From the IMG/VR virus record IMGVR_UViG_2660237933_000004: 40,475 bases of DNA; one strand, 5' to 3'. The position numbers and the translations under genes are program-made. A model generated the notes under the pieces. That model was not told the DNA's origin. It did no database searches and saw nothing but the letters and a program-made list of their open reading frames with translations. This document shows, in pieces, positions 7,088 through 40,475 of this stretch (position 1 is its first letter; each line of letters starts with the position of its first letter). The stretch is from a virus (taxonomy: Duplodnaviria > Heunggongvirae > Uroviricota > Caudoviricetes).

Positions 7088-7090
7088 TCC

Positions 7091-7673: not shown

Positions 7674-7764
7674 TTTTCGCCTATTAACATTTTTCTAAAT
7701 GTGCATTAATTCTATCACTCTATTTATGACTTACAACCAGCAATACATGTGAGGGGAATCCTGG

Positions 7765-9597: not shown

Positions 9598-9772
9598 GTG
9601 TGCGTTTCTCCTGCTCTATCCTGTTTGCCTGACTGACCAGCAAGGGAATTTCACTGATCGGCATATTCAGCAATTCGAAGGGATTAATGCGCCAGTAGCT
9701 GGCGCAGTCAAAGAAGCGATCAGTGAGGTATTCAGCCGTCAGGCCTGGAGGAAAAAACCAGCCACAAGCCAC
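9590..9772 (-). CDS. Tail assembly chaperone, -1 frameshift extension (GT-like)
   Basis: ORF in the -1 frame overlapping the 3' end of the chaperone ORF; continuation PPGLTAEYL follows the slippery site. Confidence 0.5.
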   Translation of the reverse strand: MACGWFFPPGLTAEYLTDRFFDCASYWRINPFELLNMPISEIPLLVSQANRIEQEKRTHG

Positions 9773-10008
9773 GCCGCTGCATTCAGGTCTGCCGGAGACA
9801 TCTGGTCGACAGAGCTTTGCGGCACTTTCGCCAGCCGCACAATGTATTTCGACACCACATGCGCCAGAAGTCTGACGGACTCATCCTGATTCATCTGGTA
9901 GGGATACCCCAGCTCGCGGACATCCTTCCCGGTGGGTTCATCAAACTCCAGTACGGAGAGTGTCTCACCATGAGCGATAATCGGTTTCTTTAACTCAAGC
10001 TCTTTCAT
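9739..10008 (-). CDS. Tail assembly chaperone (G-like)
   Basis: 89 aa ORF between tail tube and tape measure, overlapped by a -1 frame ORF. Confidence 0.6.
   Translation of the reverse strand: MKELELKKPIIAHGETLSVLEFDEPTGKDVRELGYPYQMNQDESVRLLAHVVSKYIVRLAKVPQSSVDQMSPADLNAAAWLVAGFFLQA
9752..9758 (-). promoter_or_regulatory. Programmed -1 ribosomal frameshift slippery heptamer (T TTT TTC)
   Basis: Minus-strand GGT TTT TTC in the zero frame of the chaperone, just before its stop; classic X_XXY_YYZ arrangement. Confidence 0.5.
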
Positions 10009-10364
10009 TACTGGTAATCCCCTTCTTCACCGTGGAACTCAAGATCAACCGTGCCTTCTTCGGCATTATGGTTCGCTTCGCCGTGCAGCCAGGCGGACGA
10101 CAATACATAGACCTGACCGTTCGCCAGCTCGGCAGTGATGGTCATCTCATCAGACGAGGTGATTTTGCTCACCGGAAAATTCTTCGGCACCTTGAAGGTC
10201 CCTTTGACATAAGGCGCACGGTGAGTTTCCTTGCGGTCCACTGAACCGTCCAGGCCGATGATGTCATCATTGACCGTCCTGTTCATGGGCACCTCAATGC
10301 CGCCGGTCAGCGATAGCTGCTGACCGTCAATTTTGAAATAACAGGTTCCCCCGATACGGGCCAT
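10008..10364 (-). CDS. Tail tube protein
   Basis: 118 aa, directly downstream of the sheath gene with overlapping stop/start. Confidence 0.6.
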   Translation of the reverse strand: MARIGGTCYFKIDGQQLSLTGGIEVPMNRTVNDDIIGLDGSVDRKETHRAPYVKGTFKVPKNFPVSKITSSDEMTITAELANGQVYVLSSAWLHGEANHNAEEGTVDLEFHGEEGDYQ

Positions 10365-11860: not shown

Positions 11861-12014
11861 CGGTATTCACCTTTTTATTCACGCGCCGGATATCACCCGC
11901 TGCTTCACGGCGCAGCCAGTAGTTGTTCTCGTCAACATTTCGCCCTTCGGCGGGCAAAAGGTCGCCGCGGGCAGGGTCAGGAACTGACCGCCCTTTAACA
12001 GGTTTGACAAACAT
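11844..12014 (-). CDS. Hypothetical small protein (56 aa), translationally coupled to sheath gene
   Basis: ATG at 12014; stop overlaps the sheath start codon; found by manual translation, below the ORF-track size cutoff. Confidence 0.25.
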   Translation of the reverse strand: MFVKPVKGRSVPDPARGDLLPAEGRNVDENNYWLRREAAGDIRRVNKKVNTDDDKL

Positions 12015-12022
12015 GAGGATCC

Positions 12023-12583
12023 TCAGGAAGGAAGGGTTATTTCGGTGTGATGTTCGATGTCGCCGTCAGGCCCGTTACCGGGCTCGAGATAATCAACATC
12101 AATCGCCAGCGTTTGCAGTTCATCCAGACTGTTCAGATCATCCTGCTGGCGGGTATCGTCTTCAGTCAGCTCGCTGATGACCGAAAAATCGAACTGATAA
12201 ATCAGCTCATGACGATTCAGATCCAGCAGCGTGCCGCCGTCATAGGTAATCGGGTTACCGCACGCCTCCGGGTTCCAGCCCAGCAGAGCCTTAAAGAGCA
12301 TCTGCCGGACATCGTCCACCACATCATACGAGGCAAACTGACCGCGCTCATCACGCCCGTTACTCAGTATGACAACCACGGAGAAACCCTCTTTCAGCTC
12401 CTGCCAGTAGTCGGTCTGGCTTTTGTTTTCTCCCGGAGAATCATCACCCGGTACAACATATGCCGCCGGGAGTCTCAGCTTTCCGACCTCCGGCAGATTT
12501 TTGAACTGGGCCGCGCCTGCAACCCGGTTTTCAAAATACGGACAGCGGGCACGCAGTGCAGCAATAACAGGCGTCAGTTTCAT
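12023..12583 (-). CDS. Virion structural protein (tail completion/Gp37-like)
   Basis: 186 aa ORF between head-tail joining genes and sheath. Confidence 0.4.
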   Translation of the reverse strand: MKLTPVIAALRARCPYFENRVAGAAQFKNLPEVGKLRLPAAYVVPGDDSPGENKSQTDYWQELKEGFSVVVILSNGRDERGQFASYDVVDDVRQMLFKALLGWNPEACGNPITYDGGTLLDLNRHELIYQFDFSVISELTEDDTRQQDDLNSLDELQTLAIDVDYLEPGNGPDGDIEHHTEITLPS

Positions 12584-13086
12584 CTGTGTCGTCGCTCCGG
12601 CTTCAGTGATTTACGCAATTCCCGCGCCAGAAAATAGCGTGTCCAGCTGCGGTTCTTTTCAAGCGTTTCCACCATGAAGTTATTACGTGGAGCCAGTCGC
12701 CAGCCGCTGCCACCGGATGCACCACGATGATGGCTGCGACGACGCTTTGCCCCTCGCCTCACGCCATAGAACAAAAAAGCCGGATAAAAATCACCGGTGA
12801 TACGGCGGTTTCCCTCTCCATTACGCTGGTTAGGGGCTATACGTGCCATAAAACCAGGGCGATGTTTACTGGCTCTGGGTACCATGTAACCAATCGAACG
12901 AGCCAGGCGTCCGGTCTGATAACCGGGGTTTTCACCCGGTGCCGACCGCGCACGGCGCATCACCAGCCGACGGGCATCACGCATATGACGCTGACCAATC
13001 GTGACAAACGCCCGCCGGACACGGGCGCGGTTAAAGCGCATCTCCGCGGGCTGCTGAAAATCAACGTGCAAAAAGGAAGTCGTCAT
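12580..13086 (-). CDS. HK97 gp10-like virion morphogenesis protein
   Basis: 168 aa, Arg-rich; position after head-tail adaptor. Confidence 0.4.
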   Translation of the reverse strand: MTTSFLHVDFQQPAEMRFNRARVRRAFVTIGQRHMRDARRLVMRRARSAPGENPGYQTGRLARSIGYMVPRASKHRPGFMARIAPNQRNGEGNRRITGDFYPAFLFYGVRRGAKRRRSHHRGASGGSGWRLAPRNNFMVETLEKNRSWTRYFLARELRKSLKPERRHR

Positions 13087-13471
13087 TGTTGCCTCCGTGA
13101 CTCTGCCTACATTCGCCCAGCTCCGTACACTCCAGCAGCAGAAAGCGCCGCGCCCCGTTCAGATCGCGCTGACGTTTCACCCGGTACACACTGTCACCGC
13201 AGACCACCTCATAATCAGCGGTGATCCCCCGGCGGTAACGAATGGTGATGTAATGGGTGATGGCGTCCCCGGTCTGCGCGGTTTCCTGCCAGGTGGTGGC
13301 ACTGGTCTGGATAACCTTCGCCCATGTCCGGAACGTAACCGGGTATTGAGGCTCCACGCCAAAGTTATCCGCGGGCATATCCACCCGCAGGCGGATCAGG
13401 ACGCGTTTATTCAGTTCACCGGGGTCCGGCAGAATGTAGGTTGCGCTGGTCTGCGCCTGACGAATTTTCAT
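13061..13471 (-). CDS. Head-tail adaptor / head closure protein
   Basis: 136 aa; position after connector gene. Confidence 0.45.
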   Translation of the reverse strand: MKIRQAQTSATYILPDPGELNKRVLIRLRVDMPADNFGVEPQYPVTFRTWAKVIQTSATTWQETAQTGDAITHYITIRYRRGITADYEVVCGDSVYRVKRQRDLNGARRFLLLECTELGECRQSHGGNNDDFLFAR

Positions 13472-13791
13472 TGCGGAAAGTACCTGTACGGGCCGACAAG
13501 CCAGCCAAAACTCTGCGGCATGTCGAGTTTCTCCACTTCCGTAACCGACGAGCGGTTTTCGTAAAAATGGCTGATAAGCATCAGCATCCCCAGACGAATA
13601 TCATCCGGCAGGTGCAGCCCGTCCGGATCGCTGTCCGGAATGGTTTCATCCGGTGCATAGAGCTTCCGGTTCAGATACGTTTCCGTCCGCTTTTGCGCCG
13701 CACAGGCCAGCAGTTGCAGATGGCGGTCATCAGCATCAAAATCCTCATCCAGCCGGAGTTGGGCTTTAATCTCTTCCATTGTCAGAAGCAT
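13468..13791 (-). CDS. Head-tail connector protein (gp6-like)
   Basis: 107 aa acidic protein immediately after capsid region. Confidence 0.5.
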   Translation of the reverse strand: MLLTMEEIKAQLRLDEDFDADDRHLQLLACAAQKRTETYLNRKLYAPDETIPDSDPDGLHLPDDIRLGMLMLISHFYENRSSVTEVEKLDMPQSFGWLVGPYRYFPQ

Positions 13792-13793
13792 AC

Positions 13794-13994
13794 TCAGCCC
13801 TCTTTACTGGTCGTGGCTTTTTTCTCTTTTGTCGCTTTACTGCTTTTTGCACTGGTTCCGCGCTCTGCTAACCCGGCCTGAAGTGCAATCTCCTGCACCC
13901 GGGCAGGAAGCGCCCCGTCGTCATACTCACCGGCCCGAATGACCTCAACACGCATACCGTCCGGTGACCATTTCAGATCTTGTTTCAGGATCAT
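13794..13994 (-). CDS. Hypothetical protein (66 aa)
   Basis: Small ORF between major capsid and connector genes, Lys/Ser-rich C-terminus. Confidence 0.3.
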   Translation of the reverse strand: MILKQDLKWSPDGMRVEVIRAGEYDDGALPARVQEIALQAGLAERGTSAKSSKATKEKKATTSKEG

Positions 13995-14043
13995 GATTCT
14001 TCACCCGTCAGAACAGGGGGCGCGGTTCCGCGCCCCTGAGTGA

Positions 14044-15249
14044 TTACGCCGCTGCAATCTTCAGCAGTTTGATGGCCTGCGAATCGACCAGCATCCCGCC
14101 GGTGCGCTTGGTGGTATAAAAACCGACAAACGGTTTATTGGTGTACGGGTCACGCAGAATGCGGGTGCCGATACGGTCAACGATGGTGTAACCCCGTTTG
14201 AAGTTACCAAATGCAATGGCTTTCGCATCAGCGGCGATATCCGGCATCTGTTCGTTTTCAGCGATACCGTAACCCGCCAGAGAGGACGGCTGCCCCAGTT
14301 CCAGCCCCGGACGCCACAGATAGTTACCCTCGCTGTCTTTCAGCAGACGGATGGCAAACAGGCTGTTGTTGTTCATCATGAATTTCGCGCCAGTGCGGTG
14401 TGCCTTACGCAGCGTGTAAATCAGTTTGATAATGGCGTCTGCGGTCACCGCCGTCGCTTCGCCGGATACAATATGCTGAAGTTTGCCGAACGCCCGGACC
14501 TTATCGGTTTCATCGGTGGATTCATACGCCAGGAACCCTTTTGGCTTCTTGGTGCCATCGCCGGAGGTAAAGGCAATTTCTTCCTGTTCGGCAAATTCGG
14601 TTGCCAGCTCGCTGTTGATCCAGGCCTCCACGTTGAAAAAGGCATCGTCCAGCATTTTCTGGGTGGCCTGCGGGTTACCGTAGATTTCCCCCATGAGAGG
14701 TTCAATCAGCTCCAGTCTGGAGGTGGCAGTCTGGGATCGCGTATCCGTTTCCCCCACCCATCCGGAAGCCGTACCGCCCAGATTCACCAGTTTTTTGTAG
14801 TCGGAACCGCCAACGGTGATCACCGTGGCTTCCTGACGCATCACCACTTCATCTTTCAGCAGGTTGAGAATGTTGCGATCCAGTTCTTCCGGCACGGCGT
14901 AGCCACCGTCTTCATCGGTGCCCACCTGCAATGCCTTACGCTCCAGATCGCGCAGACCGTCTTCACGGCCTTTACGCAGAAAACCCACAAACGCCTCTTT
15001 ATGCTCGGTGGCCAGTTTATTTTGCGCACCACCTGCCGGACGTTTCAGCTCAAGCAGCTCTTTTTCAAGGTCGCTTTTGAGATTTTCCAGCTCGCTGAGT
15101 TTTCCGTTCAGGGTTTCCACCTGCCCGGCAAGTTTGCCTTTTTCCTGCTCAATCGCCTCCACGCGCTTATCGTTCTTTGCTTTGAAGTCGTCAAACTTCT
15201 GCTGCAGCTCCTGCGCGACCTGTTCGACATCTTTAATATCTACCGCCAT
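14044..15249 (-). CDS. Major capsid protein, HK97-fold with N-terminal delta (scaffold) domain
   Basis: 401 aa; N-terminal approx 100 aa coiled-coil-like (KLSELENLKSDLEKELLELK); follows the prohead protease gene. Confidence 0.85.
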   Translation of the reverse strand: MAVDIKDVEQVAQELQQKFDDFKAKNDKRVEAIEQEKGKLAGQVETLNGKLSELENLKSDLEKELLELKRPAGGAQNKLATEHKEAFVGFLRKGREDGLRDLERKALQVGTDEDGGYAVPEELDRNILNLLKDEVVMRQEATVITVGGSDYKKLVNLGGTASGWVGETDTRSQTATSRLELIEPLMGEIYGNPQATQKMLDDAFFNVEAWINSELATEFAEQEEIAFTSGDGTKKPKGFLAYESTDETDKVRAFGKLQHIVSGEATAVTADAIIKLIYTLRKAHRTGAKFMMNNNSLFAIRLLKDSEGNYLWRPGLELGQPSSLAGYGIAENEQMPDIAADAKAIAFGNFKRGYTIVDRIGTRILRDPYTNKPFVGFYTTKRTGGMLVDSQAIKLLKIAAA

Positions 15250-15263
15250 CGTATTTCTCCTGA

Positions 15264-15950
15264 TTAGAAGTTCAGATTTTTCAGTGCATTCAGTGCAGAG
15301 CTCACATCCTCAGCGTCGCGCAGGGACAGTGCGCTATAGCCCCCGGCCATGAATGCTTTGGCCTGGGTACGGGAGAGTCCGACATCACGCAGGACTCTTT
15401 CGATTTTTTTCTGTTCGGGGATTTCCCCGCGGGCCAGCGCGTTCTTGACGTCGCTGATCCGTGCCTCGTCGTTAGACGGGAACGTCACCAGACTGACTTC
15501 CCAGAGGTCGATTTCTTTTAGCAGAAAGGCTTCTTTCGTCCGGTCGTATTCCCAGTCTTTCAGGACGTACCCAATAGAAAGGCCGGTTAACGAACCGGCC
15601 TTCATGTGTGCATGTGCGCGTTTTGCCAGGGGATCATCATCAATGAGCAACCGCCCCCTGACGTAAAGCCCGACATCGTCTTCCTTCATTTCGGTGTAAA
15701 CACCGATGGGCTCATCCATGCGGTGCTGCCAGAGCAGCGCAGGTAACGCTTTTCTGTCACTCCACGCCCGCAGGGAGGCGGCAAATGCCCCGGACATCAC
15801 CACATCATCGTGGCTGTCCTTTACACCAAAGACGGAGCCATACCCTTCAAACTCACCGGAGTCACTGACAGACTTCAGACTCAGCGGTACATCAAGACGT
15901 TGTTTCGTCTGCATTGGCGTTATCCTTCTGCTTACCGGCTTTACTGCCAT
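15264..15950 (-). CDS. Prohead protease (HK97 family); true start may be the internal Met at 15914
   Basis: 228 aa between portal and major capsid genes. Confidence 0.7.
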   Translation of the reverse strand: MAVKPVSRRITPMQTKQRLDVPLSLKSVSDSGEFEGYGSVFGVKDSHDDVVMSGAFAASLRAWSDRKALPALLWQHRMDEPIGVYTEMKEDDVGLYVRGRLLIDDDPLAKRAHAHMKAGSLTGLSIGYVLKDWEYDRTKEAFLLKEIDLWEVSLVTFPSNDEARISDVKNALARGEIPEQKKIERVLRDVGLSRTQAKAFMAGGYSALSLRDAEDVSSALNALKNLNF

Positions 15951-17133
15951 CGGAGGGTTTCGTGGTCATGTTCATCGGTGTGAGATAGACATCACCACCG
16001 GGACGCGGATTCATATCTTCCAGATCGCGGCAGTCATTGGGAGAGTAAATTCCCCAGTTGATCCCGGTGGCGTAGGCTTCAAAACGGGACTTCATATCCC
16101 CGCGCAGTAACGCCCCGGCGTTAAATTTGGCGTAATAAACGCCCTGCTTACTTTTTCGTACCAGTCCGGTGTTGATCCGCTGTTCGATGCGGGTCAGATA
16201 CGGCACCAGTGAATAGTTGATAAATCCCAGCCCCAGCTCTTCGATATTGTTGAAGGTGGCGCGATCGGTGTTCTGCACCATGTGCAACGGCACCCGGAAC
16301 AGACGACAGATTTCTTCAAGCTGAAACTTGCGGGTTTCCAGGAACTGGCTGTCCTCGGCGTTCAGCGCCATCGACTTCCAGTCCAGCCCCATCTCAAGGA
16401 TCATCGGGCGGTGAGCATTACCAAGCCCGGTGTGACGCTCCTCAAAATCTTTCTTCAGGCGCTCGTAAGCCTGATCCGACAGCGTCTGTTCTGTACGCAA
16501 CACACCCGACGTCACCGCGCCATTGCTGAACAGTCTGGCCCCGTGCTCTTCGGTCGCAGCTGCCAGCGATATTGCCTCACGGGCATAGGCGATGGGATTC
16601 AGTCCCACCAGACCGTCCAGCGTCAGCGTGCGCACATGCCAGATATCCTCCTGGCTCAGTACATCCGTGGAGCCATCCGGGAATGTGACCTGATAGACCG
16701 GCTCCCAGCTACTGTTAAGCTTCGGTACCACACAGCCGGGATCGACGGGCAGCAGTTCAGCCACTTCGCCAAATGCTTTCACTTTGTAGGCGTAAAAGTT
16801 TCCCCGCAGGCACAGACAGGTGACCACCAGCTCCCAGAACTCCTGCGGCGTCATATAGCCATTGGGATGCGTGGAGATCAGCTTATGCAGACGTTCGCCA
16901 GTGGCTCTCTGCTTCAGGCTGCCGTTCAGGTGATACAGGTTGCAGGGCAACATCCCGACCGACTCCGCCAGCACCCTGACACAGGAAAAAACCGCCGTCA
17001 GTCGCATGGCCCGCTGGCTGCTGATCTGCTTTCCGGTATAGGTGTCGTAGGACAACCCGATGGCATCCGCCAGCTCTGCTGGCGTGGTCACCGGTGCGTC
17101 ACTTTTTCGTTGAAATAATCCCGAAAAGAACAC
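15892..17133 (-). CDS. Portal protein (HK97 family)
   Basis: 413 aa; downstream of large terminase. Confidence 0.85.
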   Translation of the reverse strand: MFFSGLFQRKSDAPVTTPAELADAIGLSYDTYTGKQISSQRAMRLTAVFSCVRVLAESVGMLPCNLYHLNGSLKQRATGERLHKLISTHPNGYMTPQEFWELVVTCLCLRGNFYAYKVKAFGEVAELLPVDPGCVVPKLNSSWEPVYQVTFPDGSTDVLSQEDIWHVRTLTLDGLVGLNPIAYAREAISLAAATEEHGARLFSNGAVTSGVLRTEQTLSDQAYERLKKDFEERHTGLGNAHRPMILEMGLDWKSMALNAEDSQFLETRKFQLEEICRLFRVPLHMVQNTDRATFNNIEELGLGFINYSLVPYLTRIEQRINTGLVRKSKQGVYYAKFNAGALLRGDMKSRFEAYATGINWGIYSPNDCRDLEDMNPRPGGDVYLTPMNMTTKPSDGSKAGKQKDNANADETTS

Positions 17134-17315
17134 TATTTACCTCCGCCGACAGACAGCTGTGTACGATCGAGATATCGCGCCACCAGCCACGACCAGAACA
17201 GGCACAGCGCCCCGGCAACAACAAAACCCGCCGGGGGATAAATCAGCCAGGCACCATATGCCAGCAAAAGCGCACCCAGCACGCCCACCAGAGGCGCGAG
17301 AATCAGCATGATCAT
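17133..17315 (-). CDS. Hypothetical small membrane protein (60 aa)
   Basis: Two hydrophobic helices; sits between terminase and portal with stop overlapping the portal start. Confidence 0.3.
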
Positions 17316-17326
17316 AATTACCTCAG

Positions 17327-19060
17327 TTAAAGCGAGCGGATCCCGTAGGACTCAATGTGGTCAGACAGCGTGTCTTCTTTCTCGTACAGCATGGCTCTGC
17401 CAACCGCCATAATCAGCGCAACTGCACCATCGATTTTGTTTTCCGCCTGCTCTTTGACGGGTTTCACCACATCATCGTTACCCGGAATGGTTTTGCCGAC
17501 CACGTTGCCGATACACCAGGTCATGATGGGATTGCCGTCATGATGAAAGCGCCCCGATTCAATTGCCGCTTCCAGCTCTTTCATCGGGTCGGACATGTTG
17601 GTGTAGTTCTGAATGATAGTGATGGGGTTCAGGTCTTCATCAGCAAGGTCATGTGACAACCCGGTCGCCCCGAAGGGGTCGATGGGTGACTCACTGACCG
17701 GGCTGATTTTGTTCGCCGCTTTGGCCTCCTCGAGGATGTAGCGATAATCCACCTCCGCACCATCGGTAACGGTCAGAACGCCCATTTCCACCCATTTCTG
17801 AAAGCGTTCGGCTGTCCGTCGATCTTCATTTTTCTCGACGCTGTACACCGTGTCATACGGTACCCAGAAACGCGGGGCCACACTGTAGTAATGCGTTTTA
17901 CCGTCAATCTCGCGGGTATAAAGTCGCGCCATGCTGTTCATATCCAGCTTACGCGCCAGGTCAAAGGCCAGAATGCACGGCTGCCCCTCGAACTGCTCAA
18001 GAGTCAGTGATTTATCCTCGCATCTCTGCCAGCTCACCAGGTTGAAATACGCCGAACGCGCCGACACCCAGATATTGAGGTGTTTTGTTTTAAAGACGTT
18101 TGCCAGACGGGCGTTATTTTTCGCACGTTGCTGCTGGCTTAACAAAAACTCGCGATAAACCGACACACCGATATTCGGGTTAGCTTTTTCAAGTACCTGC
18201 GGGTCGGTCCAGTCGTCGCCTTCGTCAACGGTATAGATGATCCCGAACAGTTCATCGTTGGGCACCGAGCCGTTGAGCATCTCGATGACTTCCCGCCGTT
18301 TGTCGTAGCACGGCCCCTCAATGTTGTACCCGGCGGTGGTAATGGCCCACATCAGTGGCTGGCGTCGCGCCCCCATCCCGGTAAGCATCGTGGTGTAAAG
18401 CGCATCTGTGGCGTGCTCGTGATATTCATCCACCACCGCACAGTGGGGTGATGAACCATCACCGGGGTTACCGATCAGCGGTTCAAACCGCGCACCATCC
18501 TCCGGACGGTTCATGTTTGAGGCGTTAACCTCAATCCCGAACGCTTCCGTCAGCATGGGTGTGCGTTTACACATCAGTCGTGCCGGACGAAAGACTTCCC
18601 ATGCCTGTTTCTCCGTCGTGGCACCGGAATACACTTCCGCGCCGAACTCGTTATCACAGGCAAAACAATACAGGGCGACACCGGCAGAGATTGCCGATTT
18701 GCCGTTCTTACGGGGGATTTCGGTATACACCTCACGGAAGCGGCGCAGCCGGGAGCCTTTATTGACCCAGCCAAACGCGCAGCAGATCACAAAGAGCTGC
18801 CACGGCTCCAGCGTGATGGGCATCCTCTTAAATGCCCACTCACCCTTGGTGTGCGGCAACAGCTGAATAAATTTCGCGGCCCGTTCAGCCAGGTCCTTGT
18901 CGAAGCGGTAACGAAACGACTTACTTTTTTCCTCCATCAGGTCATCAAGATGGCGCTGGCAGGCCTGAATCACAAACTGGCAGGCCACAATCTTTCCGTG
19001 CACGACATCACGGGCATACTGATTGGCAGCATTTACGTTGGGGTAAGATTTCCGGCTCAT
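17327..19060 (-). CDS. Terminase large subunit
   Basis: 577 aa; overlaps the small subunit gene by 4 nt; size and position typical of HK97-type terminase. Confidence 0.9.
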
Positions 19061-19560
19061 GATTCGATGATTTTCAGAAACGGGTTAGTGGCTTTCTTCT
19101 GCCCCGCCAGGCCAATCAGACGCTGGCGGCTGCTGGGGTCGAGTCCGAGCATTGCCCCCGTACTGCTCATCTCGGACTCCTGTTCTTTTTTGGCGGTCAG
19201 CTCCGGATTTTTGACCATACCGCCCATTGCACCGGTGATGGTGTTGCCCTGTCTGGCAATATTTTTCACGGCACGTCGCCAGAACTCGTAGGCCACGCAC
19301 CACCGCTCAAGCACCGCGAGGTCAGTCACGCACAGCAGGCCCTGACCGCAGAGTTCTTTAGTTGTCAGTTGCCACATGATCGTGGCGAGAGGGAGATCTT
19401 CTTCAGCGAACCACTCCGGTGGCTCAACACCTTTGATGGGCGTAAAAACAGGTTCATCTTTATTCAGGGCTCGCTTGCCGGGGTTTCCGGCCAGCGCCTT
19501 GCGCGCCGTTGGCTTGGGGCGACGCCCGGAACGCCCCGCCGTTCCAGCCATATGCGGCAC
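19057..19560 (-). CDS. Terminase small subunit
   Basis: 167 aa, basic N-terminus; immediately upstream of large terminase and downstream of HNH gene. Confidence 0.65.
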
Positions 19561-19594
19561 TCCTGGTTAAATTTCATTTTTCGCGGGTATAAAA

Positions 19595-19660
19595 AAACGA
19601 TGGGGCGGGCAGTCCGGAAGACGTCAGGCCGCAGGGATTTGACCCGCCCCTCCCCTCAGG
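19595..19660. other. Candidate cos site region
   Basis: GC-rich inverted repeat GGGGCGGG ... CCCGCCCC between the HNH endonuclease and small terminase genes; resembles the GGGCGG start of lambda cosN. Confidence 0.3.
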
Positions 19661-19676
19661 CAGTTGAGAATCATTA

Positions 19677-21202: not shown

Positions 21203-21664
21203 CTATCTGCACTGCTCATTAATATACTTCTGGGTTCCTTCCAGTTGTTTTTGCATAGTGATCAGCCTCTCTCTGAGGGTGAAATAATCCCGTTCAGCGG
21301 TGTCTGCCAGTCGGGGGGAGGCTGCATTATCCACGCCGGAGGCGGTGGTGGCTTCACGCACTGACTGACAGACTGCTTTGATGTGCAACCGACGACGACC
21401 AGCGGCAACATCATCACGCAGAGCATCATTTTCAGCTTTCGCATCAGCTAACTCCTTCGTGTATTTTGCATCGAGCGCAGCAACATCACGCTGGCGCACC
21501 TGCATGTCAGTAATTGTCGAGTTCGCCAGCTTCAGTTCTCTGGCATTTTTGTCGCGCTGGGCTTTGTAGGTAATGGCGTTATCGCGGTAATGATTAACAG
21601 CCCATGACAGGCAGACGATGATGCAGATAACCAGAGCGGAGATAATCGCGGTTACTCTGCTCAT
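21203..21664 (-). CDS. Rz: Rz i-spanin
   Basis: 153 aa with N-terminal TM helix; follows endolysin; contains embedded Rz1 ORF. Confidence 0.8.
21262..21444 (-). CDS. Rz1: Rz1 o-spanin lipoprotein
   Basis: 60 aa embedded in Rz in the +1 frame; lipobox VVGC and proline-rich [13 protein letters not shown] as in lambda Rz1. Confidence 0.8.
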
Positions 21665-22137
21665 ACCTCAATCTCTCTGACCGTTCCGCCTGCTTCTTTG
21701 AATTTTGCAATCAGGCTGTCAGCCTTATGCTCGAACTGACCATAACCAGCACCCGGCAGTGAAGCCCAGATATTGCTGCAACGGTCAATTGCCTGACGAA
21801 TATCACCGCGATCAATCATCGGTAAAGCGCCACGCTCCTTAATCTGCTGCAATGCCACAGCGTCCTGGCTTTTCGGAGAGAAGTCTTTCAGAGCAAGCTG
21901 CTTACGGTAAGCATCCCACCAGCGTGAAAGAAGCTGATAACGTCCGGCGGCTGTTGATTTAAGTTTCGGGTTTAGCGTGACAAGTTTGCGAGGATGATCG
22001 GAGTAATCAGTAAACAGTTCACCACCAACAATAACATCATAACCGTGGTTACGTGTCGGTTGTCGCCCGTTATCCGTTCCTTCTGACCACGCCAACATAT
22101 CGAGGAAAGCTTTACGCTGAGGATTAAGATTTTGCAT
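21661..22137 (-). CDS. R: Endolysin (lambda R-type lytic transglycosylase)
   Basis: 158 aa, near-identical to lambda R from residue 6 onward. Confidence 0.9.
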
Positions 22138-22657: not shown

Positions 22658-23461
22658 ATGACAGAAAAAGATAACATTGGTAAGTTAATTTGGCATATTG
22701 CTTGCGATGAATCTGGCATTGATGGACAACGTTTCTACGGCTTTGGCAGTCTGTGGATGAAGTACCAACGCCGTGGGGATTTCTGTCAACTAATCAGAGA
22801 ACTACGCGGAAAACATGGTTTTTTTGAAGAAATAAAATGGCAAAAAGCCCATTCAAAAAGATACTCTGAATTTTATCTTGAGCTGATCGACTTATTCTTT
22901 AGAGTTCCTTGGCTAGCTTTTCATTGTATCGTGGTTGAAAAATCAATAGTAAATAAGGCATTTCATAATGGAGATTATGACCTGGCAAGGAGAAAGCACT
23001 TCACAAATCTCATTACCACAAAAATTAGCTCTGTAATTTCTGCACACCCTGAAAGAGACAGTTACTTCAGGATTGAAGTTGATCCTATCGCATCTCGTTA
23101 TAAAAAGGCTGATGAAGAACTAAATGTTATTGCCAATAACATATTGAATAGAAAATTTGGTCGTAAAGGGATAATCAGCAGTGTAGTGACAAAAGACTCT
23201 AAAGCATCTGAAAACATTCAGCTAGCCGATTTTTTCTTAGGTGCGGTTATGTGCGCATATCAAGGAAAAGCTTCATCTGAAGCCAAAATAAGAGTATCAA
23301 ACTATGTTGCTTCATATTTAGGCTGGGATCACTTGCAATATGATACATGGCACACTGAGAGAAAATTTAATATCTGGTATTTTTATGATAAAACTCGAGG
23401 GCCACGAGATATAGAAACTCAAAATGTTAGCTTGAAGTATCCACTTCCCAAAAAGAAATAG
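22658..23461 (+). CDS. DUF3800-like protein (function unknown), opposite-strand moron between Q and holin
   Basis: 267 aa; N-terminal DESG and C-terminal QLAD motifs as I recall for DUF3800; AT-rich; AT-rich upstream region. Confidence 0.6.
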   Translation: MTEKDNIGKLIWHIACDESGIDGQRFYGFGSLWMKYQRRGDFCQLIRELRGKHGFFEEIKWQKAHSKRYSEFYLELIDLFFRVPWLAFHCIVVEKSIVNKAFHNGDYDLARRKHFTNLITTKISSVISAHPERDSYFRIEVDPIASRYKKADEELNVIANNILNRKFGRKGIISSVVTKDSKASENIQLADFFLGAVMCAYQGKASSEAKIRVSNYVASYLGWDHLQYDTWHTERKFNIWYFYDKTRGPRDIETQNVSLKYPLPKKK

Positions 23462-26274: not shown

Positions 26275-27801
26275 TCAAAAATAAACCTCACCATCAACCA
26301 TATATTTGAGAGTACTTATCGCCTGCTGGGCGGATATTGTTTTCATTAAAGGATAGTGTTTAAAAACAATGCCATTCATAAAATAGATATCACAGGTTTT
26401 ATTATCTGTATTGATTATGATTTTTTCGAATGTTTTATAGGCAAGTGTACGACATAGCTCTCGCCCATTTTTACTGGTTAAGTCAATAGCATGAAAATCA
26501 CCAAGTGAACTCACCGCTTTACTCTTCAAAGTTTTTAATGATACAGAAGCCCTTCGTAATTCCTTATCTAATACTCTGATTTTTTCTGCTATAGCGGTAA
26601 CTTCAGGCGCAACAGATAATGCAGCAATTAAATTATTAATTTTCATCTGGAGCTCAATAATTTTCAACTCTAAAGTTTCATTAGCATCTTTCTTGTTTTC
26701 AACTGGTTGGATTTTACTACAATTAAAAAGCAACTCATTAATGATATTATAATCAACCAAATCTCTCTTTATTGATGGCCTGTCACATCGATGCAGTCTT
26801 CTCATCGGACAAACATAATAGCCATGCAAACTTCCAGATACCGCATGAACAATCATGGTATTACCACAAGCCTCGCACTTCATAACTGTTCGAAGTAGAT
26901 TTATCAACATAGGATTTTTGCTACTATTGCTAATACCAAAAGGTGCCAACCGAATTTCCTGCACAGCGTAAAACAAATCATCTGATATGACTCTGGGATA
27001 ATAGCCAGCGATTTCACTTATTCCTTTACCTCTTGCACGATATGAAGGTACGCATATACCTATCAGAGCTTTATTCGCTAATAATTTTTCAATTACAGAA
27101 GGCCCCCATGCACTTTCTTTGCCTGAGAAATTTTTTACAGCATGATCATTTAAATACTTGGCTATTGCATTCAATGATCGCCTTTCCATCCTGAGTTTAA
27201 AAATTAGCTCAATCGTTTTCACCCTGTCGGGGTCTGGAATAAAAGCTGTTCTTTTGTCATCCAATGAGAGCCATCTCGGACAAGACGCCGTCATAATCGT
27301 GCCTGACTCCAGTGCATCCTGCCGTTTTTTCTTCCATGATAATTTAACCCGACTTGACTTTATCTCGCTTTCTTCATTTGCCCTTTGTGCTATAAGTATG
27401 GCTTTTATTAATGAATATGGATCATTCAAAGAGTCAATATTATAGACTGTATTATCGCAAAGAGTTATAACATCAATACCGTGATTCAAAATCAATTTCA
27501 GACGCTCAATCGCTTCACCGACTTTTTCTCTTGAAAGTCTGTCCAAACTTTCAACTAACAATGTAGTTCCTGGCAATATATAACCATGCTCTATAGCATC
27601 TAAAAATTCCGAAAAAGCTCCTGATTGTGCATGCTTTCCTTTGAATGCACTTAATCCTAAATCTTCATATGTTATGGTATCAAGATAATAATCACTATTT
27701 ACCTTTAACCATTCAGCAATAAGTCTTCTCTGTCGGTTTAATGAGTCGCCAGACATCTGACCTGGTGATGAAAATCGCATATATGCTATGGCTTTTTTCA
27801 T
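26275..27801 (-). CDS. ybcK: Large serine recombinase (YbcK-like)
   Basis: 508 aa; N-terminal resolvase motif YMRFSSPGQ...SLNRQ, Cys-rich zinc-ribbon region (CEACG...CPMRRLHRC); AT-rich. Confidence 0.8.
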   Translation of the reverse strand: MKKAIAYMRFSSPGQMSGDSLNRQRRLIAEWLKVNSDYYLDTITYEDLGLSAFKGKHAQSGAFSEFLDAIEHGYILPGTTLLVESLDRLSREKVGEAIERLKLILNHGIDVITLCDNTVYNIDSLNDPYSLIKAILIAQRANEESEIKSSRVKLSWKKKRQDALESGTIMTASCPRWLSLDDKRTAFIPDPDRVKTIELIFKLRMERRSLNAIAKYLNDHAVKNFSGKESAWGPSVIEKLLANKALIGICVPSYRARGKGISEIAGYYPRVISDDLFYAVQEIRLAPFGISNSSKNPMLINLLRTVMKCEACGNTMIVHAVSGSLHGYYVCPMRRLHRCDRPSIKRDLVDYNIINELLFNCSKIQPVENKKDANETLELKIIELQMKINNLIAALSVAPEVTAIAEKIRVLDKELRRASVSLKTLKSKAVSSLGDFHAIDLTSKNGRELCRTLAYKTFEKIIINTDNKTCDIYFMNGIVFKHYPLMKTISAQQAISTLKYMVDGEVYF

Positions 27802-28057
27802 GGTGACACCTGCTAACGTATGCTTTTATAAACCTTAGTGGTGAGATATAATTTTTGTTTAATTTTTATTTAAAAAGACAATTAAGGTCACATTATCTTG
27901 AATATACAACAATAATCGTATTGCAATTTTCTTACGCCATAATCTTGAAAGCACAAAAGAATACATAAAAAAATAAAGACATTAACAAAAAGCATAAAAC
28001 GAGGCTCATATAAATATAAGAGCCTCCATATTTTAGTCGTTTAGAAACAAATTATTT

Positions 28058-28390
28058 TTAATGTGGTGTGCTTCGTGACAATAAATTAATAACCAACACT
28101 CCGGCACAAATCAACATCATGCCTATAATGGCTGGCATGTCCAGCCGTTGGCCGAAAAATCCCCATGACAGTAAGCTAATCAGGACAATACCGACTCCTG
28201 ACCAGATAGCATAAGCAATCCCTGTAGGAATATAAGCCAGCGTCTGCGCTAATAACCAGAATGATGCACAATAACAAATAATTGTACCAACAGATGGCCA
28301 TAACCGTGTAAAACCTTCTGAAAACTTCATTAAGGTTGTACCAATGACCTCTGCAAGTATTGCACCACCAAGATAAATATAAGGGTTCAT
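28058..28390 (-). CDS. emrE: Small multidrug resistance efflux protein EmrE
   Basis: 110 aa from MNPYIYLGGAILAEVIGTTLMKFSEGF; four TM helices; matches E. coli EmrE from memory. Confidence 0.85.
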   Translation of the reverse strand: MNPYIYLGGAILAEVIGTTLMKFSEGFTRLWPSVGTIICYCASFWLLAQTLAYIPTGIAYAIWSGVGIVLISLLSWGFFGQRLDMPAIIGMMLICAGVLVINLLSRSTPH

Positions 28391-28457
28391 AGCATATTCT
28401 TTCCTGTTCAAACTGGAGAGAATTGTACTACAGTTTGAACTCAACTCACCTGTTTCA

Positions 28458-31310: not shown

Positions 31311-31350
31311 AACAACCTCCGTGGTTAATTTGAATCAAGATTAAAACTGT

Positions 31351-31371
31351 GGTTGTTTTTAGTCAACAACC
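31351..31371. promoter_or_regulatory. Candidate OR operator palindrome
   Basis: GGTTGTT-TTTAGTC-AACAACC perfect 7-bp inverted repeat between cro and cI; the same GTTGTT/AACAAC hexamers recur at the pL region. Confidence 0.35.
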
Positions 31372-31414
31372 ATTTTCGTTTGATGGAATAAAACCTTGGT
31401 TGTACATTTGGACT

Positions 31415-32104
31415 ATGAAAACAACACTCTCAGAAAGACTTAAAGAAGCCAGATTAGCGCGAGGCCTTACACAAAAGGCGCTTGGGGATTTGGTCGGGGT
31501 TAGCCAAGCTGCTATTCAGAAAATCGAAACAGGGAAAGCTAACCAAACAACTAAAATCGTGGAGATCGCGAACGCTTTGGGTGTGCGCGCAGAATGGTTA
31601 TCTTCTGGCGTTGGAAATATGTCAGACAGTACAGTGCAACCAATACCATCAACTGTCAGCCATTCCAAATACTTTAAGATTGACGTTCTTGATATAGAAG
31701 TGAGTGCCGGGCCGGGAGTCATCAACCGTGAGTTTGTAGAAGTTCTACGCTCGGTTGAGTACTCGTTTGACGATGCTCGTCACATGTTCGATGGTAGGAA
31801 GGCAGAAAATATCCGCATCATTAACGTACGCGGTGACAGCATGTCAGGAACGATCGAACCAGGTGATCTGCTGTTCGTTGATATCACGGTTAAATCTTTC
31901 GACGGTGATGGTATCTATGCGTTTCTGTATGACGACACCGCCCATGTAAAGCGCCTGCAAATGATGAAGGATAAGCTACTGGTTATCTCTGATAACAAGA
32001 GCTACTCGCCGTGGGACCCAATTGAGAAAGACGAGATGAACCGGGTATTCATCTTCGGTAAGGTTATTGGGAGCATGCCGCAGACATACAGGAAGCATGG
32101 GTAA
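31415..32104 (+). CDS. cI: CI-type prophage repressor (HTH plus S24 LexA-like autopeptidase domain)
   Basis: 229 aa from MKTTLSERLKEARLARGLTQKALGD; C-terminal GDSMSGTIEPGDLLFVD Ser nucleophile motif and a downstream Lys. Confidence 0.85.
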   Translation: MKTTLSERLKEARLARGLTQKALGDLVGVSQAAIQKIETGKANQTTKIVEIANALGVRAEWLSSGVGNMSDSTVQPIPSTVSHSKYFKIDVLDIEVSAGPGVINREFVEVLRSVEYSFDDARHMFDGRKAENIRIINVRGDSMSGTIEPGDLLFVDITVKSFDGDGIYAFLYDDTAHVKRLQMMKDKLLVISDNKSYSPWDPIEKDEMNRVFIFGKVIGSMPQTYRKHG

Positions 32105-32183: not shown

Positions 32184-33029
32184 ATGAAGCTTAACTTTTA
32201 TGCCGTATACATTCAAAATACTAGCTCTCTGAAAAAACAACCTATAGATTTATTGTCATTTCTGACAGAGCAGGTAATAAACGCTAAGAATCATGCTCAG
32301 CAGATTGAAGACTACTATGTTTTTGCACATCATATAATTAATGATAGTTTTATCCTGACAAAAACATTTGATTCAGAACTAGTTAAAAAAATCAATAGAA
32401 AAACACTTTCGGTTGATGAAATAAGAAATGCGCTTAGTTCAGATGAGTCATTAGGATTCCCATCATTTTTATTAATAAGAAAAAATATTATCGGATATGC
32501 AAATACATTATTCGGCCCAAAAACTCGTGATCTTGCAGCTTACCTAAAAGGAAAGGGAGCAATACCTGATGGATACTCACTATTCATAGAACCTTTGATG
32601 AGAGATATAACAAAGGATGATGCTTTAAGCATGCAGTTTATAGGAAGAACAACGGTAAGGGTTGAAAATGGGTCAAAACTTCTCAGCCCCCTACTTAGAG
32701 TGCTTGGTGCACAAGCAGTTGACGAAGAGCTCTTAGAAGGACTGGAAATAACCGTGAAGCCTAAACGTTTACGAAATATAAAATCTGTTGCCAAAGGGAT
32801 TATTAGCAATGTGGATGAACAACATGAGAGCATTCACCTGAAGGGTAAAGAACAAGCTGCAGATATTCTTACAGAATATTATCTTTCTGACAAAGGCCAC
32901 ATTGGAGCAAATATCTATAAATCATCGAATGAAGACATAGCATCCGAAATGTCAACTTGCTATCTCAGGATGAAATTGATTATAATGGAAAGTTATAATA
33001 GAACATTTGGAGATGAGTTACCACTATAA
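32184..33029 (+). CDS. rexA: RexA-like abortive-infection protein
   Basis: 281 aa directly downstream of cI; conserved segments ESLGFPSF, IEPLMR..TKDD, FIGRTTVRVE, ILTEYYLSDKGH match lambda RexA from memory; AT-rich. Confidence 0.7.
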   Translation: MKLNFYAVYIQNTSSLKKQPIDLLSFLTEQVINAKNHAQQIEDYYVFAHHIINDSFILTKTFDSELVKKINRKTLSVDEIRNALSSDESLGFPSFLLIRKNIIGYANTLFGPKTRDLAAYLKGKGAIPDGYSLFIEPLMRDITKDDALSMQFIGRTTVRVENGSKLLSPLLRVLGAQAVDEELLEGLEITVKPKRLRNIKSVAKGIISNVDEQHESIHLKGKEQAADILTEYYLSDKGHIGANIYKSSNEDIASEMSTCYLRMKLIIMESYNRTFGDELPL

Positions 33030-33031
33030 TA

Positions 33032-33487
33032 TTGGGGGGCTATATGAAGTCACGGCACAGGATAGCGCCAGCAATAATACTTTTTCTTTTGCCATTCCCA
33101 ATTATTATAAGTGCGTATTATCTAATCCGCCACATGTTTCCGGGTATGGCTTTTAGCGAGCACAGAGATGCGCTGGGTGGCGCTATTGCCGCTTATTCTG
33201 GTACTACAATTGCGATACTTATAGCCGCTTTAACATTTCTGATGGGGCTGGGAGGCAGGAATATTCGCAAATTGAAAACATATGGCTATATGACATCAAT
33301 CATAATCATGTATGGATTAACTTTTTGCGAGCTAGGAGTACTTTTCTTTAATGGCTTGTTTTTACTTGCAACAAGTAAAAATCCTATACTAATGCTACCA
33401 TCAATCGCTATTGGTTTATCAGGTACGTCACTAATCCATATTGGCATGCTCCTGATGCAATTACTTAATCTGTCAAAACATAAGTAA
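33032..33487 (+). CDS. rexB: RexB-like membrane protein
   Basis: 151 aa, four hydrophobic helices; FSEHRDALG...TIAILIAALTFL...YGYMTS closely matches lambda RexB from memory. Confidence 0.7.
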   Translation: MGGYMKSRHRIAPAIILFLLPFPIIISAYYLIRHMFPGMAFSEHRDALGGAIAAYSGTTIAILIAALTFLMGLGGRNIRKLKTYGYMTSIIIMYGLTFCELGVLFFNGLFLLATSKNPILMLPSIAIGLSGTSLIHIGMLLMQLLNLSKHK

Positions 33488-36011: not shown

Positions 36012-36166
36012 AGCATCCTCGCGATAATATCCGGGTAGGCGCGATCACTTACATCTACTCCGTTACAAAGCGAGGCTGGGTATTTCCCGGCCTTTCTGTT
36101 ATCAGAAATCCACTGAAAGCACAGCGGCTGGCTGAGGAGATAAATAATAAACGGGGGGCTGTATGA
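36008..36166 (+). CDS. Hypothetical small protein (52 aa), translationally coupled
   Basis: ATG overlaps exo stop (ATGA); stop overlaps the methyltransferase start; manual translation [19 protein letters not shown]... Confidence 0.3.
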
Positions 36167-36720
36167 CTGATTTCACCGGAAGCAATACTCCTGCCGAACA
36201 TCGCGACAGCTGGCGCACACCACCAGAGATTTTTGCTGCGCTTAATGCAGAGTTCGTTTTTCAACTTGATGCTGCAGCCAGCGAAAAAAACCGACTATGT
36301 CGGCTTTTTATCTCACAGGAGCAGAACACATTAACCACTTCATGGCCTGAAGCAATGGGATATGCCTCTGGTTATGTCTGGTTGAATCCACCATACAGCA
36401 ATATTTCCCCTTTTGTGAAAAAGGCAGCCACTGAAAACAAATTCAGTAGTGTGGGATGTGTAATGTTATTGCCTGCTGACACATCTGTCGGATGGTTTCA
36501 TGAAGCGATACAAACCGCCAGTGAGGTCAGATTCATCACGGCAGGACGACTGGCATTTATTAACCCACTCACCGGGAAACCCGTCAGTGGAAATAATAAA
36601 GGCTCGATGCTCATTATCTGGCACCCATACCCCCGTACACACTGCCACTTTACGACCGTTGATCGTGGAGAGTTGATGGCGTTCGGCTCAAGGATTCTTG
36701 CCCGTCGGGAGGCTGCATGA
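36163..36720 (+). CDS. Phage N6-adenine DNA methyltransferase (Dam-like, orphan)
   Basis: 185 aa; NPPY catalytic motif (WLNPPYSNISPF) and WRTPPEIFAALNAEF N-terminal region typical of the phage Dam family. Confidence 0.8.
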   Translation: MTDFTGSNTPAEHRDSWRTPPEIFAALNAEFVFQLDAAASEKNRLCRLFISQEQNTLTTSWPEAMGYASGYVWLNPPYSNISPFVKKAATENKFSSVGCVMLLPADTSVGWFHEAIQTASEVRFITAGRLAFINPLTGKPVSGNNKGSMLIIWHPYPRTHCHFTTVDRGELMAFGSRILARREAA

Positions 36721-37376: not shown

Positions 37377-37655
37377 ATGTTCAGAATCATTTTTCCTAAC
37401 ACCTGGTACGTCGACCACCACGGCACTCCCTGCAAAATCCTGCGTTCTACCCACAACAAAGTTCACTACATCCGAAAAGGCAGAACATGTATCGCCAGCA
37501 TGTTCCGCTTTAATCATGACTTTGAACCTGTGAATAAAGCTGATGCAGATCGGATAGCAGAAGAGATCGAAACGGCAGAACACATTAAGAAGTTACGTGA
37601 CATGCGTTCAAAAAGCAGAGGTAACCATGGAATCATACAGCCTCACACTCGATGA
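37377..37655 (+). CDS. Hypothetical protein
   Basis: 92 aa ORF upstream of xis; 3' end overlaps xis start. Confidence 0.3.
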   Translation: MFRIIFPNTWYVDHHGTPCKILRSTHNKVHYIRKGRTCIASMFRFNHDFEPVNKADADRIAEEIETAEHIKKLRDMRSKSRGNHGIIQPHTR

Positions 37656-37977
37656 GGCCTGTCAGTTTCTCAAGATATCCAGACCTACCGCTACCAACTG
37701 GATACGAACAGGCCGCCTACAGGCAACACGCAAAGACCCCACTAAACTAAAATCTCCTTACCTCACAACACGACAAGCCTGCATTGCGGCGCTTCAGTCT
37801 CCGCTGCATACTGTCCAGGTGAGCGCGGGTGATGGCATAACAGAGGAAAGAAAATGTCACTCTTCCGCAGAGGTGAAATATGGTACGCCAGTTTCACATT
37901 GCCGAACGGTAAAAGATTTAAACAGTCTCTTGGAACAAAGGACAAAAGGCAGGCGACAGAGCTCCATGACAAGCTAA
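37627..37977 (+). CDS. xis: Excisionase (P22-type)
   Basis: 116 aa from [31 protein letters not shown] (AlpA/Xis-type HTH); immediately upstream of and overlapping int. Confidence 0.7.
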
Positions 37978-39017
37978 AGGCTGAAGCATGGCGGGTCAGC
38001 AAACTTGGTGAAATACCTGATATGACGTTCGAGGAGGCGTGTATCAGGTGGCTCGAAGAGAAAGCACATAAAAAATCACTGGACGATGACAAAAGCCGGA
38101 TCGGATTCTGGCTTCAACATTTCGCAGGGATGCAACTAAGAGACATCACTGAATCAAAAATTTATTCAGCAATGCAGAAAATGACGAACCGGCGTCATGA
38201 GGAAAACTGGAAACTCAGGGCAGAAGCATGCAGAAAAAAAGGGAAACCTGTTCCAGAATACACGCCAAAACCAGCGTCCGTTGCAACGAAGGCTACGCAT
38301 CTTTCATTTATAAAGGCCCTGCTAAGAGCCGCAGAGCGTGAATGGAAAATGCTGGATAAGGCACCAATTATTAAAGTGCCTCAACCAAAGAATAAACGGA
38401 TCCGCTGGCTGGAGCCCCATGAAGCACAAAGGCTGATTGATGAATGTCCGGAGCCATTAAAGTCTGTTGTTGAATTTGCACTGGCAACAGGCTTAAGACG
38501 CTCGAACATCATCAACCTTGAATGGCAACAAATAGATATGCAGCGCCGGGTGGCATGGATAAACCCGGAAGAGAGTAAATCAAACCGCGCAATTGGCGTT
38601 GCGCTGAATGATACTGCATGTCGCGTATTGAAAAAACAAATCGGGAATCATCACCGTTGGGTATTTGTGTACAAGGAAAGCTGTACCAAACCAGACGGAA
38701 CGAAAGCGCCAACAGTAAGGAAGATGCGGTATGACGCAAACACAGCCTGGAAAGCGGCGCTGAGACGGGCTGGTATTGATGATTTCAGATTTCACGACTT
38801 GAGACACACCTGGGCAAGTTGGCTGGTTCAAGCCGGAGTCCCGTTGTCAGTGTTACAGGAAATGGGAGGCTGGGAGTCTATCGAAATGGTTCGTCGATAT
38901 GCTCACCTTGCACCTAATCACCTTACCGAACACGCACGGCAAATAGACTCGATCCTGAACCCATCGGTCCCAAATTTGTCCCAGTCAAAAAATAAGGAAG
39001 GTACTAATGATGTGTAA
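37854..39017 (+). CDS. int: Tyrosine integrase (P22/SfV-type, thrW-specific)
   Basis: 387 aa; N-terminus [31 protein letters not shown] and catalytic region [10 protein letters not shown]...VRRYAHL; ends 14 bp from the tRNA-Thr 3' end. Confidence 0.9.
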
Positions 39018-39031
39018 CTTATTGATTTAAA

Positions 39032-39107
39032 TGGTGCCGATAATAGGAGTCGAACCTACGACCTTCGCATTACGAATGCGCTGCTCTACCAACTGAGCTA
39101 TATCGGC
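39032..39107 (-). tRNA. thrW: tRNA-Thr (anticodon CGU), thrW-type
   Basis: Minus-strand 76 nt GCCGATATAGCTCAGTTGGTAGAGCAGCGCATTCGTAATGCGAAGGTCGTAGGTTCGACTCCTATTATCGGCACCA; cloverleaf with CGT anticodon; 3' CCA. Confidence 0.9.
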
Positions 39108-39221: not shown

Positions 39222-40475
39222 TTACGCACGAATGGTGTAATCACCAATGCCGATCCACTTGTAAGTGGTCAGTGCTTCCAGCCCCATTGGGCCACGCGCG
39301 TGGAGTTTTTGTGTGCTTACCGCCACTTCCGCACCCAGTCCAAACTGGCCGCCGTCGGTAAAACGCGTAGAGGCGTTAACGTAAACAGCGGACGAATCCA
39401 CTTCGTTAACAAAACGCTGGGCGTTGCGCATATCGCGGGTCAGGATCGCATCGGAGTGTTGTGTGCCGTGTTCACGAATATGGGCGATGGCATCGTCAAG
39501 ATCGCTGACGATTTTGACGTTCAAATCTAATGACAGAAACTCATCGTCATACTCTTCGGCTTTAACCGCCACCACCTTCGCGGGGCCTGCCTGCAACTGT
39601 GTCAGCGCAGCTGCATCTGCGTGTAATGTCACGCCGCTTTCCGCCATTTGTTTGCTTAATACGGGCAGGAAGCTATCGGCGATGTTTTTATTCACCAGCA
39701 ACGTTTCTACCGTATTACATGTGCTCGGACGCTGGGTTTTCGCGTTGACGATCACTTTTAATGCTTCAGCAATCTCTGCACTTTCATCAACGTAAATATG
39801 GCATACGCCTATACCACCAGTGATCACCGGGATCGTCGACTGTTCGCGGCACAGTTTATGCAAACCAGCCCCACCGCGCGGGATCAGCATGTCGATGTAT
39901 TTATCCATACGCAGCATTTCACTGACCAGCGCACGGTCAGGATTATCAATCGCCTGCACGGCACCCGCCGGTAAGCCACAGGATTTCAGGGCGTCCTGAA
40001 TCACCGCCACCGTTGCAGCGTTAGTGCGACAGGTTTCTTTGCCACCACGCAGGATCACCGCATTACCGGTTTTCAGGCACAGCGAAGCGACATCAACCGT
40101 CACGTTCGGGCGCGCTTCATAAATCACGCCAATCACCCCCAGCGGCACGCGACGACGCTCAAGACGCAGGCCGCTGTCCAGCACGCCGCCATCAATCACC
40201 TGCCCCACCGGATCGGCGAGGTTACACACCTGGCGCACATCATCGGCAATGCCTTTCAACCGTGCGGGCGTCAGTGCCAGACGGTCAAGCATCGCTTCGC
40301 TAAGGCCATTGGCACGCGCGTCAGCAACATCCTGGGCGTTAGCGTTGAGGATGATTTCGCTTTGTGCTTCCAGTTCATCGGCGATTTTTTCCAGCACGCG
40401 ATTTTTTTCGCGGCTGGAGAGTTGCGCTAATTTATACGAGGCTTGCTTCGCGGCAATGCCCATTTGTTCCAGCAT
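39222..40475 (-). CDS. proA: Gamma-glutamyl phosphate reductase ProA
   Basis: 417 aa, full-length match to E. coli ProA; start codon at the last base of the window. Confidence 0.95.

Follow-up and report, generated by a model that had tools for sequence, protein, structure and literature searches.

The junction studied here (positions 37627-39107 of a DNA stretch of 40,475 nt, referred to as the window) extends from the start codon of an excisionase gene through the 5' end of a tRNA gene. It raises the question of whether this tRNA gene is the site at which a phage entered the chromosome, and of whether the short distance between integrase and tRNA tells anything about the O-antigen modification (gtr) genes carried by related phages. 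A first-pass annotation of the same DNA had answered both in the affirmative, and had taken the prophage to be a gtr-less one, on the ground that no room was left for these genes between int and the tRNA.

The xis gene (37627-37977, + strand, 116 aa; Pfam HTH_17) and the int gene (37854-39017, + strand, 387 aa; PF00589, Phage_integrase, E=9.5e-48) overlap by 124 nt; the overlap and both protein lengths are the same in P22. Over its full length, Int is identical at 384 of 387 residues (99%) to the integrase of Shigella flexneri phage SfI, and at 348 of 387 (90%) to that of P22, while Xis shows 97% and 90% identity, respectively, with its SfI and P22 counterparts, in agreement with the P22 type originally assigned to the two genes. 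The catalytic motifs of the tyrosine integrase are intact (LRR with R215, H314-x-x-R317, W340 and Y349). The stop codon of int ends at 39017 and the CCA end of the tRNA lies at 39032, so that direct reading confirms an interval of exactly 14 bp (39018-39031), located on the phage P' side and different at one base from the SfI attP.

The tRNA gene (39032-39107, - strand) is 76 nt long, encodes its CCA and corresponds to thrW, tRNA-Thr(CGU), as indicated by ARAGORN, by Rfam (RF00005, 71.8 bits) and by the RefSeq annotation of relatives; ARAGORN reports it, as tRNA-Thr(CGT), as the sole tRNA in the window. The remaining sequence contains the host flank, an ORF on the - strand (39222-40475) annotated as proA in the closed genome NADC1036, where proB and phoE follow. 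The arrangement is common: the exact Int protein is found in 1015 blocks of the assembly collection, with proA as a neighbour in 9 of the 10 places listed, and 171 of 5426 closed E. coli genomes contain at least 80% of the junction.

The tRNA gene is divided into two parts of different origin. Its 3' 46 nt, CCA included (39032-39077, TGGTGCCGATAATAGGAGTCGAACCTACGACCTTCGCATTACGAAT), exactly match the annotated attP core of SfI (JX509734), and the same 46 nt are printed as the core of SfI, SfII, SfV, SfX and P22 in the study in which the attachment site of SfI was determined experimentally (PMC3636060). The other 30 nt, at the 5' end, are host-only. DNA matches to SfI (98.1%), to SfII, SfIV and SfV (about 98%) and to P22 (81%) all stop at position 39077, and the junction can be aligned as the SfI P' arm, followed by the core and by the host remainder of the tRNA; the far ends of the prophages in the draft genome L006 and in the closed genome AR_0061 show the reciprocal arrangement of host flank, core and SfI P arm. 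The 46-nt core occurs once in the window and in none of 100 shuffles. A second copy was not found in the window, either by allowing up to 3 mismatches or by searching for families of direct repeats. These data bear out thrW as the target, as an intact tRNA-Thr(CGU) gene carries the SfI attP core, with proA downstream, and the proposal that the attachment core overlaps the 3' part of a tRNA kept intact by the insertion.

The similarity between phage and host sites is not confined to the core. Just downstream of thrW, the host DNA (GGGGTAACTCTTTGATTTTAA, as seen in the far-end flanks of L006 and of two other relatives, L024 and L025) resembles the 21 nt proximal to the core on the phage P' side (TGTGTAACTTATTGATTTAAA, 39011-39031), so that the resemblance of attP and attB extends imperfectly beyond the 46 bp.

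Candidate binding sites for the integrase were found on both arms. On the P' arm, near the 3' end of int and inside its ORF, two GTCCCA motifs (38967-38972 and 38978-38983, + strand) occupy positions -65 and -54 from the core, as in the attP of P22. The other arm, in L006 as well as in P22, has three further GTCYCA motifs with the same orientation, at +55, +109 and +120. Given a background frequency of 0.47 per kb for GTCYCA, the five co-oriented motifs are good candidates for Int arm-type sites on sequence grounds; a literature search for a map of P22 arm-type, IHF or Xis sites found no paper carrying one. On the side opposite to int, the core is followed by the P arm (TATAAGAATCCG...GTCCCACC), a stretch of some 125 nt that P22 and all relatives have kept irrespective of the cargo; beyond this point sequences diverge according to the cargo carried.

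By the convention established for lambda, the junction adjoining int has the structure B-O-P' and is called attL, the 46-bp core representing its O region. The proA-proximal junction, next to thrW and int, carries the same name in the literature on Shigella phages (PMC3306764). The label attR, initially given to this junction, is right only in the orientation of the window itself and should be replaced by attL.

Taken together, the observations make it very probable that the region is the attL of an SfI/SfV-like lambdoid myovirus prophage, some 42 kb long and apparently complete, located in E. coli thrW by proA; its far end, with a second core and the cargo, would be as in its relatives. According to this reconstruction, Int, a heterobivalent tyrosine recombinase, and host IHF would have recombined attP with thrW at some point inside the 46-bp stretch. 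Since the phage carries an exact copy of the tRNA 3' end, thrW would be rebuilt on integration, and a second 46-bp copy would be left at the far end as attR (P-O-B'). On the basis of what is known for lambda and P22, Xis would direct the reverse reaction, leading to excision. The slot for cargo genes, occupied by gtrABX in SfI, SfV and P22, is on the other side of attP and would thus be found at the far end of the prophage; the nearest relatives have no gtr there, but a gene for a pin invertase and a nuclease-like one of the DUF6602 family.

The logic of the system is that of lambda Int, Xis and IHF: the tyrosine integrase is heterobivalent, its gene adjoins the P' arm and has xis upstream, and the int-proximal junction is attL. 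Lambda uses, however, a 15-bp core between gal and bio and an Int of other specificity, whereas here the identity covers 46 bp inside a tRNA gene. P22 shares the integration module (Int and Xis at 90% each, the 46-bp thrW identity and the offsets of the five GTCYCA motifs), but is a podovirus with tailspike and gtrABC; its module is 81% identical at the DNA level, and no close similarity is found outside int, xis and attP.

The closest among the described phages are SfI (JX509734), SfII, SfIV and SfV, which are like the present prophage in core, P' arm and thrW target beside proA. The likeness extends to the rest of the genome, where the head is of the HK97 type, the contractile tail of the Mu type and the early region lambdoid, and the DNA of the head and tail genes is about 97% identical. 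The differences concern the cargo, since SfI has gtrA-gtrB-gtrI between P arm and tail-fibre genes and no pin, while an invertible segment is found here at the fibre end, and the early and nin regions, which differ from those of SfI in the presence of RexAB, emrE and ybcK. E. coli prophages located in thrW (in the closed genomes NADC1036, EH10-18-47 and AR_0061, and in the drafts L005 and L006) share both junction and architecture. They differ in the cargo by the P arm, which is DUF6602, Avs2, GIY-YIG plus AraC, or gtrABX plus an acyltransferase.

Two other candidates were considered and set aside. The best phage match to the structural half, vB_EcoM-689R6, resembles the e14 element, is located at icd, has a different integrase and is uninformative about thrW. 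Phage phi458 has int, xis and core in common with the window, but a lambda-like siphovirus tail, and does not qualify as a whole-genome relative. Its record (OP434518.1, L013), described as complete and circular, contains two 46-bp cores (1-46 and 44268-44313), which suggests that it was cut out of a prophage sequence with both att junctions included, and is not a circular genome with a genuine attP.

Judging from Pfam matches and from identity with phage DNA, the prophage body occupies positions 1-39031 of the window, from the invertible fibre segment to int. Over the structural half (1770-19676), identity reaches 97.5% with SfII and lies between 97.0 and 97.5% across SfII, SfI (97.4%, over 1770-19600), SfIV and SfV. 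Pfam matches include an HK97-family capsid (Phage_capsid), portal and TerL, together with a Mu-type sheath and baseplate (Mu Gp45, Gp46 and Gp48). The early region is 96-97% identical to lambdoid (lambda-like) coliphages, and its products match Peptidase_S24 and HTH_3 (CI), Phage_rep_O, Phage_lambda_P, RecT (Bet), YqaJ (Exo) and Phage_antiter_Q. The mosaic outlined in the first-pass annotation is therefore largely correct, as regards the lambdoid Red bet/exo, O/P and CI, the HK97-type head and the Mu-type contractile tail; the lambda R lysozyme was not confirmed: the 158-aa ORF at 21661-22137 has no Pfam match, and RefSeq calls its counterpart GH24.

Several other genes of the body are worth recording. 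In the nin region, a 508-aa large serine recombinase (Resolvase, Recombinase and Zn_ribbon_recom matches) lies beside an SMR transporter (26275-28444); a homologue of the recombinase is named YbcK in phage records, and we take the two genes to be the emrE-ybcK pair of prophage DLP12. The role of such a recombinase is not obvious in a phage that already has Int and Xis. RexA and RexB, an abortive-infection pair, are encoded at 32184-33487, immediately downstream of the gene for the CI-type repressor (31349-32104), an order also found in lambda; the collection has RexA in 1431 blocks, and several integration sites are represented among the 10 places listed. A 267-aa DUF3800 protein (22658-23461, + strand) matches PDC-M04A, one of the candidate defence families in PADLOC (E=1.4e-34), and its gene, which is on the strand opposite to the flanking Q and lysis genes, looks like a moron. 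Between exo and the small int-proximal genes, an orphan N6-adenine methyltransferase of the phage Dam type (36163-36720) is found at a position where other lambdoid relatives have a DndB-like or a PAPS-reductase gene instead. Finally, a 176-aa ORF (7143-7673, - strand), located between the tape-measure and DNA-circulation genes and with neither Pfam nor PADLOC matches, is present in L005 and L006, replaced by a bPH_1 gene (125 aa) in L007 and unaligned in L003 and L004; the tail operon seems to contain a second variable slot, a small one.

The question of whether the closeness of int and tRNA bears on the gtr genes was approached by comparing gene orders. The record of SfI reads xis, int, attP core, gtrA, gtrB, gtrI and tail fibre, and that of P22 xis, int, attP core, gtrA, gtrB, gtrC and tailspike. 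The literature concurs, as attP has been described between gtrA and int, with its two halves at opposite prophage ends in the lysogen (PMC3636060), and int and the O-antigen genes are reported to finish at opposite ends of the prophage (PMC3306764). Both sources contradict the earlier statement that SfV-like phages carry gtr between attP and int. It is attP that separates int from gtr, and a tight 14-bp gap between int and tRNA is therefore to be expected also in phages that carry gtr genes; the gap is this short because the P' arm lies inside the 3' end of int. The spacing of int and tRNA carries no information on gtr cargo.

Information on the cargo must come from the other end of the prophage, which can be read in three closed genomes. 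In all of them the two cores are in direct orientation, 38.5 to 41.9 kb apart, and the junction is 99.1-99.3% identical to that of the window. In AR_0061 (junction 99.3% identical) the far end, 41.9 kb off, consists of core, P arm, gtrA, gtrB, gtrX and an acyltransferase gene disrupted by an IS. In EH10-18-47 (99.2%) the order, 38.5 kb off, is core, P arm, DUF6602 and pin, without gtr; in NADC1036, where the exact core is repeated 41.9 kb off, a GIY-YIG gene and one of the AraC family accompany pin, again with no gtr. The same int-thrW junction can thus be accompanied by gtr or not, and the deduction made from lack of room fails, as the gtr genes lie at the opposite end and AR_0061 combines them with the very same junction; its conclusion is probably right, the nearest relatives having pin and other cargo.

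As to the genome analyzed here, contig JRQA01000047.1 (GCA_000785795.1) begins with exactly the 11,094 nt that open the window. The start of the window is therefore the end of a contig, and the far end of the prophage is on another one. As placed by comparison with the relatives, position 1 of the window is 23 bp from the start of the pin invertase gene. Next comes a tail-fibre segment (44-1791, in the 1-1796 region) which is invertible and framed by inverted repeats of 20 nt without mismatches (TTGGTTTGGGAGAAGGTGCT, 44-63 and 1772-1791); it contains an alternative fibre C-terminus (4-501) and two opposed Caudo_TAP tail-fibre assembly genes. With respect to the tail genes, the segment points the other way in L006, L007 and L004, and the invertase gene is directly upstream of the segment in all relatives. 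The contig was probably interrupted here because pin is a repeated gene and the segment is invertible.

Two drafts allow the sequence to be followed beyond this point, L006 with an identity to the window of 99.99% over 9.6 kb (1772-11334) and L005 with one of 99.43% over 11,094 nt. In each of them pin comes next, then a 447-aa DUF6602 gene and the P arm, and finally the 46-bp core, unchanged and in direct orientation. What lies past the core is the host gene paoD in L006 and an island with a P4-type integrase in L005. Projected onto the window, the two cores would be about 41.96 kb apart, and the far one would fall about 2.9 kb past position 1.

The main competing explanation is that a serotype-conversion operon, gtrA-gtrB-gtr(type), is present at the far end, as in SfI and AR_0061. 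It draws support from AR_0061 itself, which pairs the junction with gtrA, gtrB, gtrX and the disrupted acyltransferase, from structural genes about 97% identical to those of gtr-carrying Shigella phages, and from the location of this genome's far end on another contig. The window has, however, the invertible segment, and the gtr-bearing versions seen, those of SfI and AR_0061, have neither pin nor the segment. In all six segment-bearing relatives in which the far side could be read (L003, L004, L005, L006, L007 and L025) pin adjoins the segment, and in five of these (L004, L005, L006, L007 and L025) tblastn found no homologues of gtrA, gtrB, gtrC or oac. The nearly identical L006, moreover, has DUF6602 in the slot. 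In the window itself no such homologues were detected by tblastn (best E=1.4), a result which has to be read considering that the gtr slot falls outside the window. The presence of gtr genes appears quite unlikely on this evidence, and the relatives indicate, with good confidence, that the prophage is gtr-less, its own far end being on another contig.

The variable slot, from the P arm to the end of the tail-fibre genes, was delimited in L006 (11358-14270), L005 (6574-9477), L007 (12435-17325), L004 (39849-43341) and L024 (6001-11596). Among similar thrW prophages its contents are pin with DUF6602, pin with Avs2, pin with GIY-YIG and AraC, or gtrA-gtrB-gtrX with an acyltransferase gene disrupted by IS903B and no pin. 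Avs2 (1484 aa) is found in L007, the GIY-YIG gene in NADC1036, and DUF6602 in L005, L006 and EH10-18-47. The DUF6602 protein matches PD-(D/E)xK and NucC-like models, and a protein of this family, named Damona, has been reported as an anti-phage system in a preprint. It seems an even chance, from the comparison of these slots, that thrW SfV-like prophages exchange, about 125 bp inside the far core and past the P arm, the gtr operon for a pin-invertible fibre module plus single-gene defences (Avs2, GIY-YIG or a Damona-related DUF6602 nuclease); the conversion cargo of this prophage would then be DUF6602.

In several genomes thrW is occupied by more than one element. Islands with P4-type integrases follow the far core in L004 (43296-44696) and L005 (5194-6619), and in L018 (11179-12711) the int-side core is followed by another integrase, not by the tRNA remainder. 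Tandem occupation of thrW is already known (PMC3306764).

Such islands, tandem or decayed, are frequent at thrW, as the P4-type integrases of L004 and L005 and the case of L018 illustrate, and together with the end of the contig within the prophage they would fit a rearranged or truncated element, which has lost its far att site and retains int, xis and attL as a fixed remnant no longer able to excise. This is even less probable than the presence of gtr genes, as the series of modules from fibre to int is complete and its ORFs are intact, the contig break can be put down to the repetition of pin and to the invertible segment, and near-identical prophages keep an intact far end. The far end of this genome may have a deletion, a rearrangement or a different cargo, which weighs against the reading of a complete-looking SfI/SfV-like prophage. 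Last, that the adjacency of int and tRNA is coincidental, and the tRNA not the attachment site, is hardly credible, as no supporting point was found and it is opposed by the exact 46-nt identity of the tRNA 3' end with the attP cores of SfI and P22, by the end of phage homology at 39077 and by the experimental determination of the SfI site (PMC3636060).

Both the integration module and the type of phage have already been published for Shigella, and the prophage is of a well-described kind. The region represents a boundary of a prophage type that is common in E. coli, and marks thrW as occupied, with little import beyond annotation. The variety of the far-end slot (gtr, Avs2, DUF6602 and GIY-YIG) offers a small example of the exchange of prophage cargo beside a conserved attP arm. 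In terms of method, the analysis provides a correction: for phages of the P22/SfV type, it is the far (attR) end of the prophage, and not the neighbourhood of int, that tells whether gtr genes are present.
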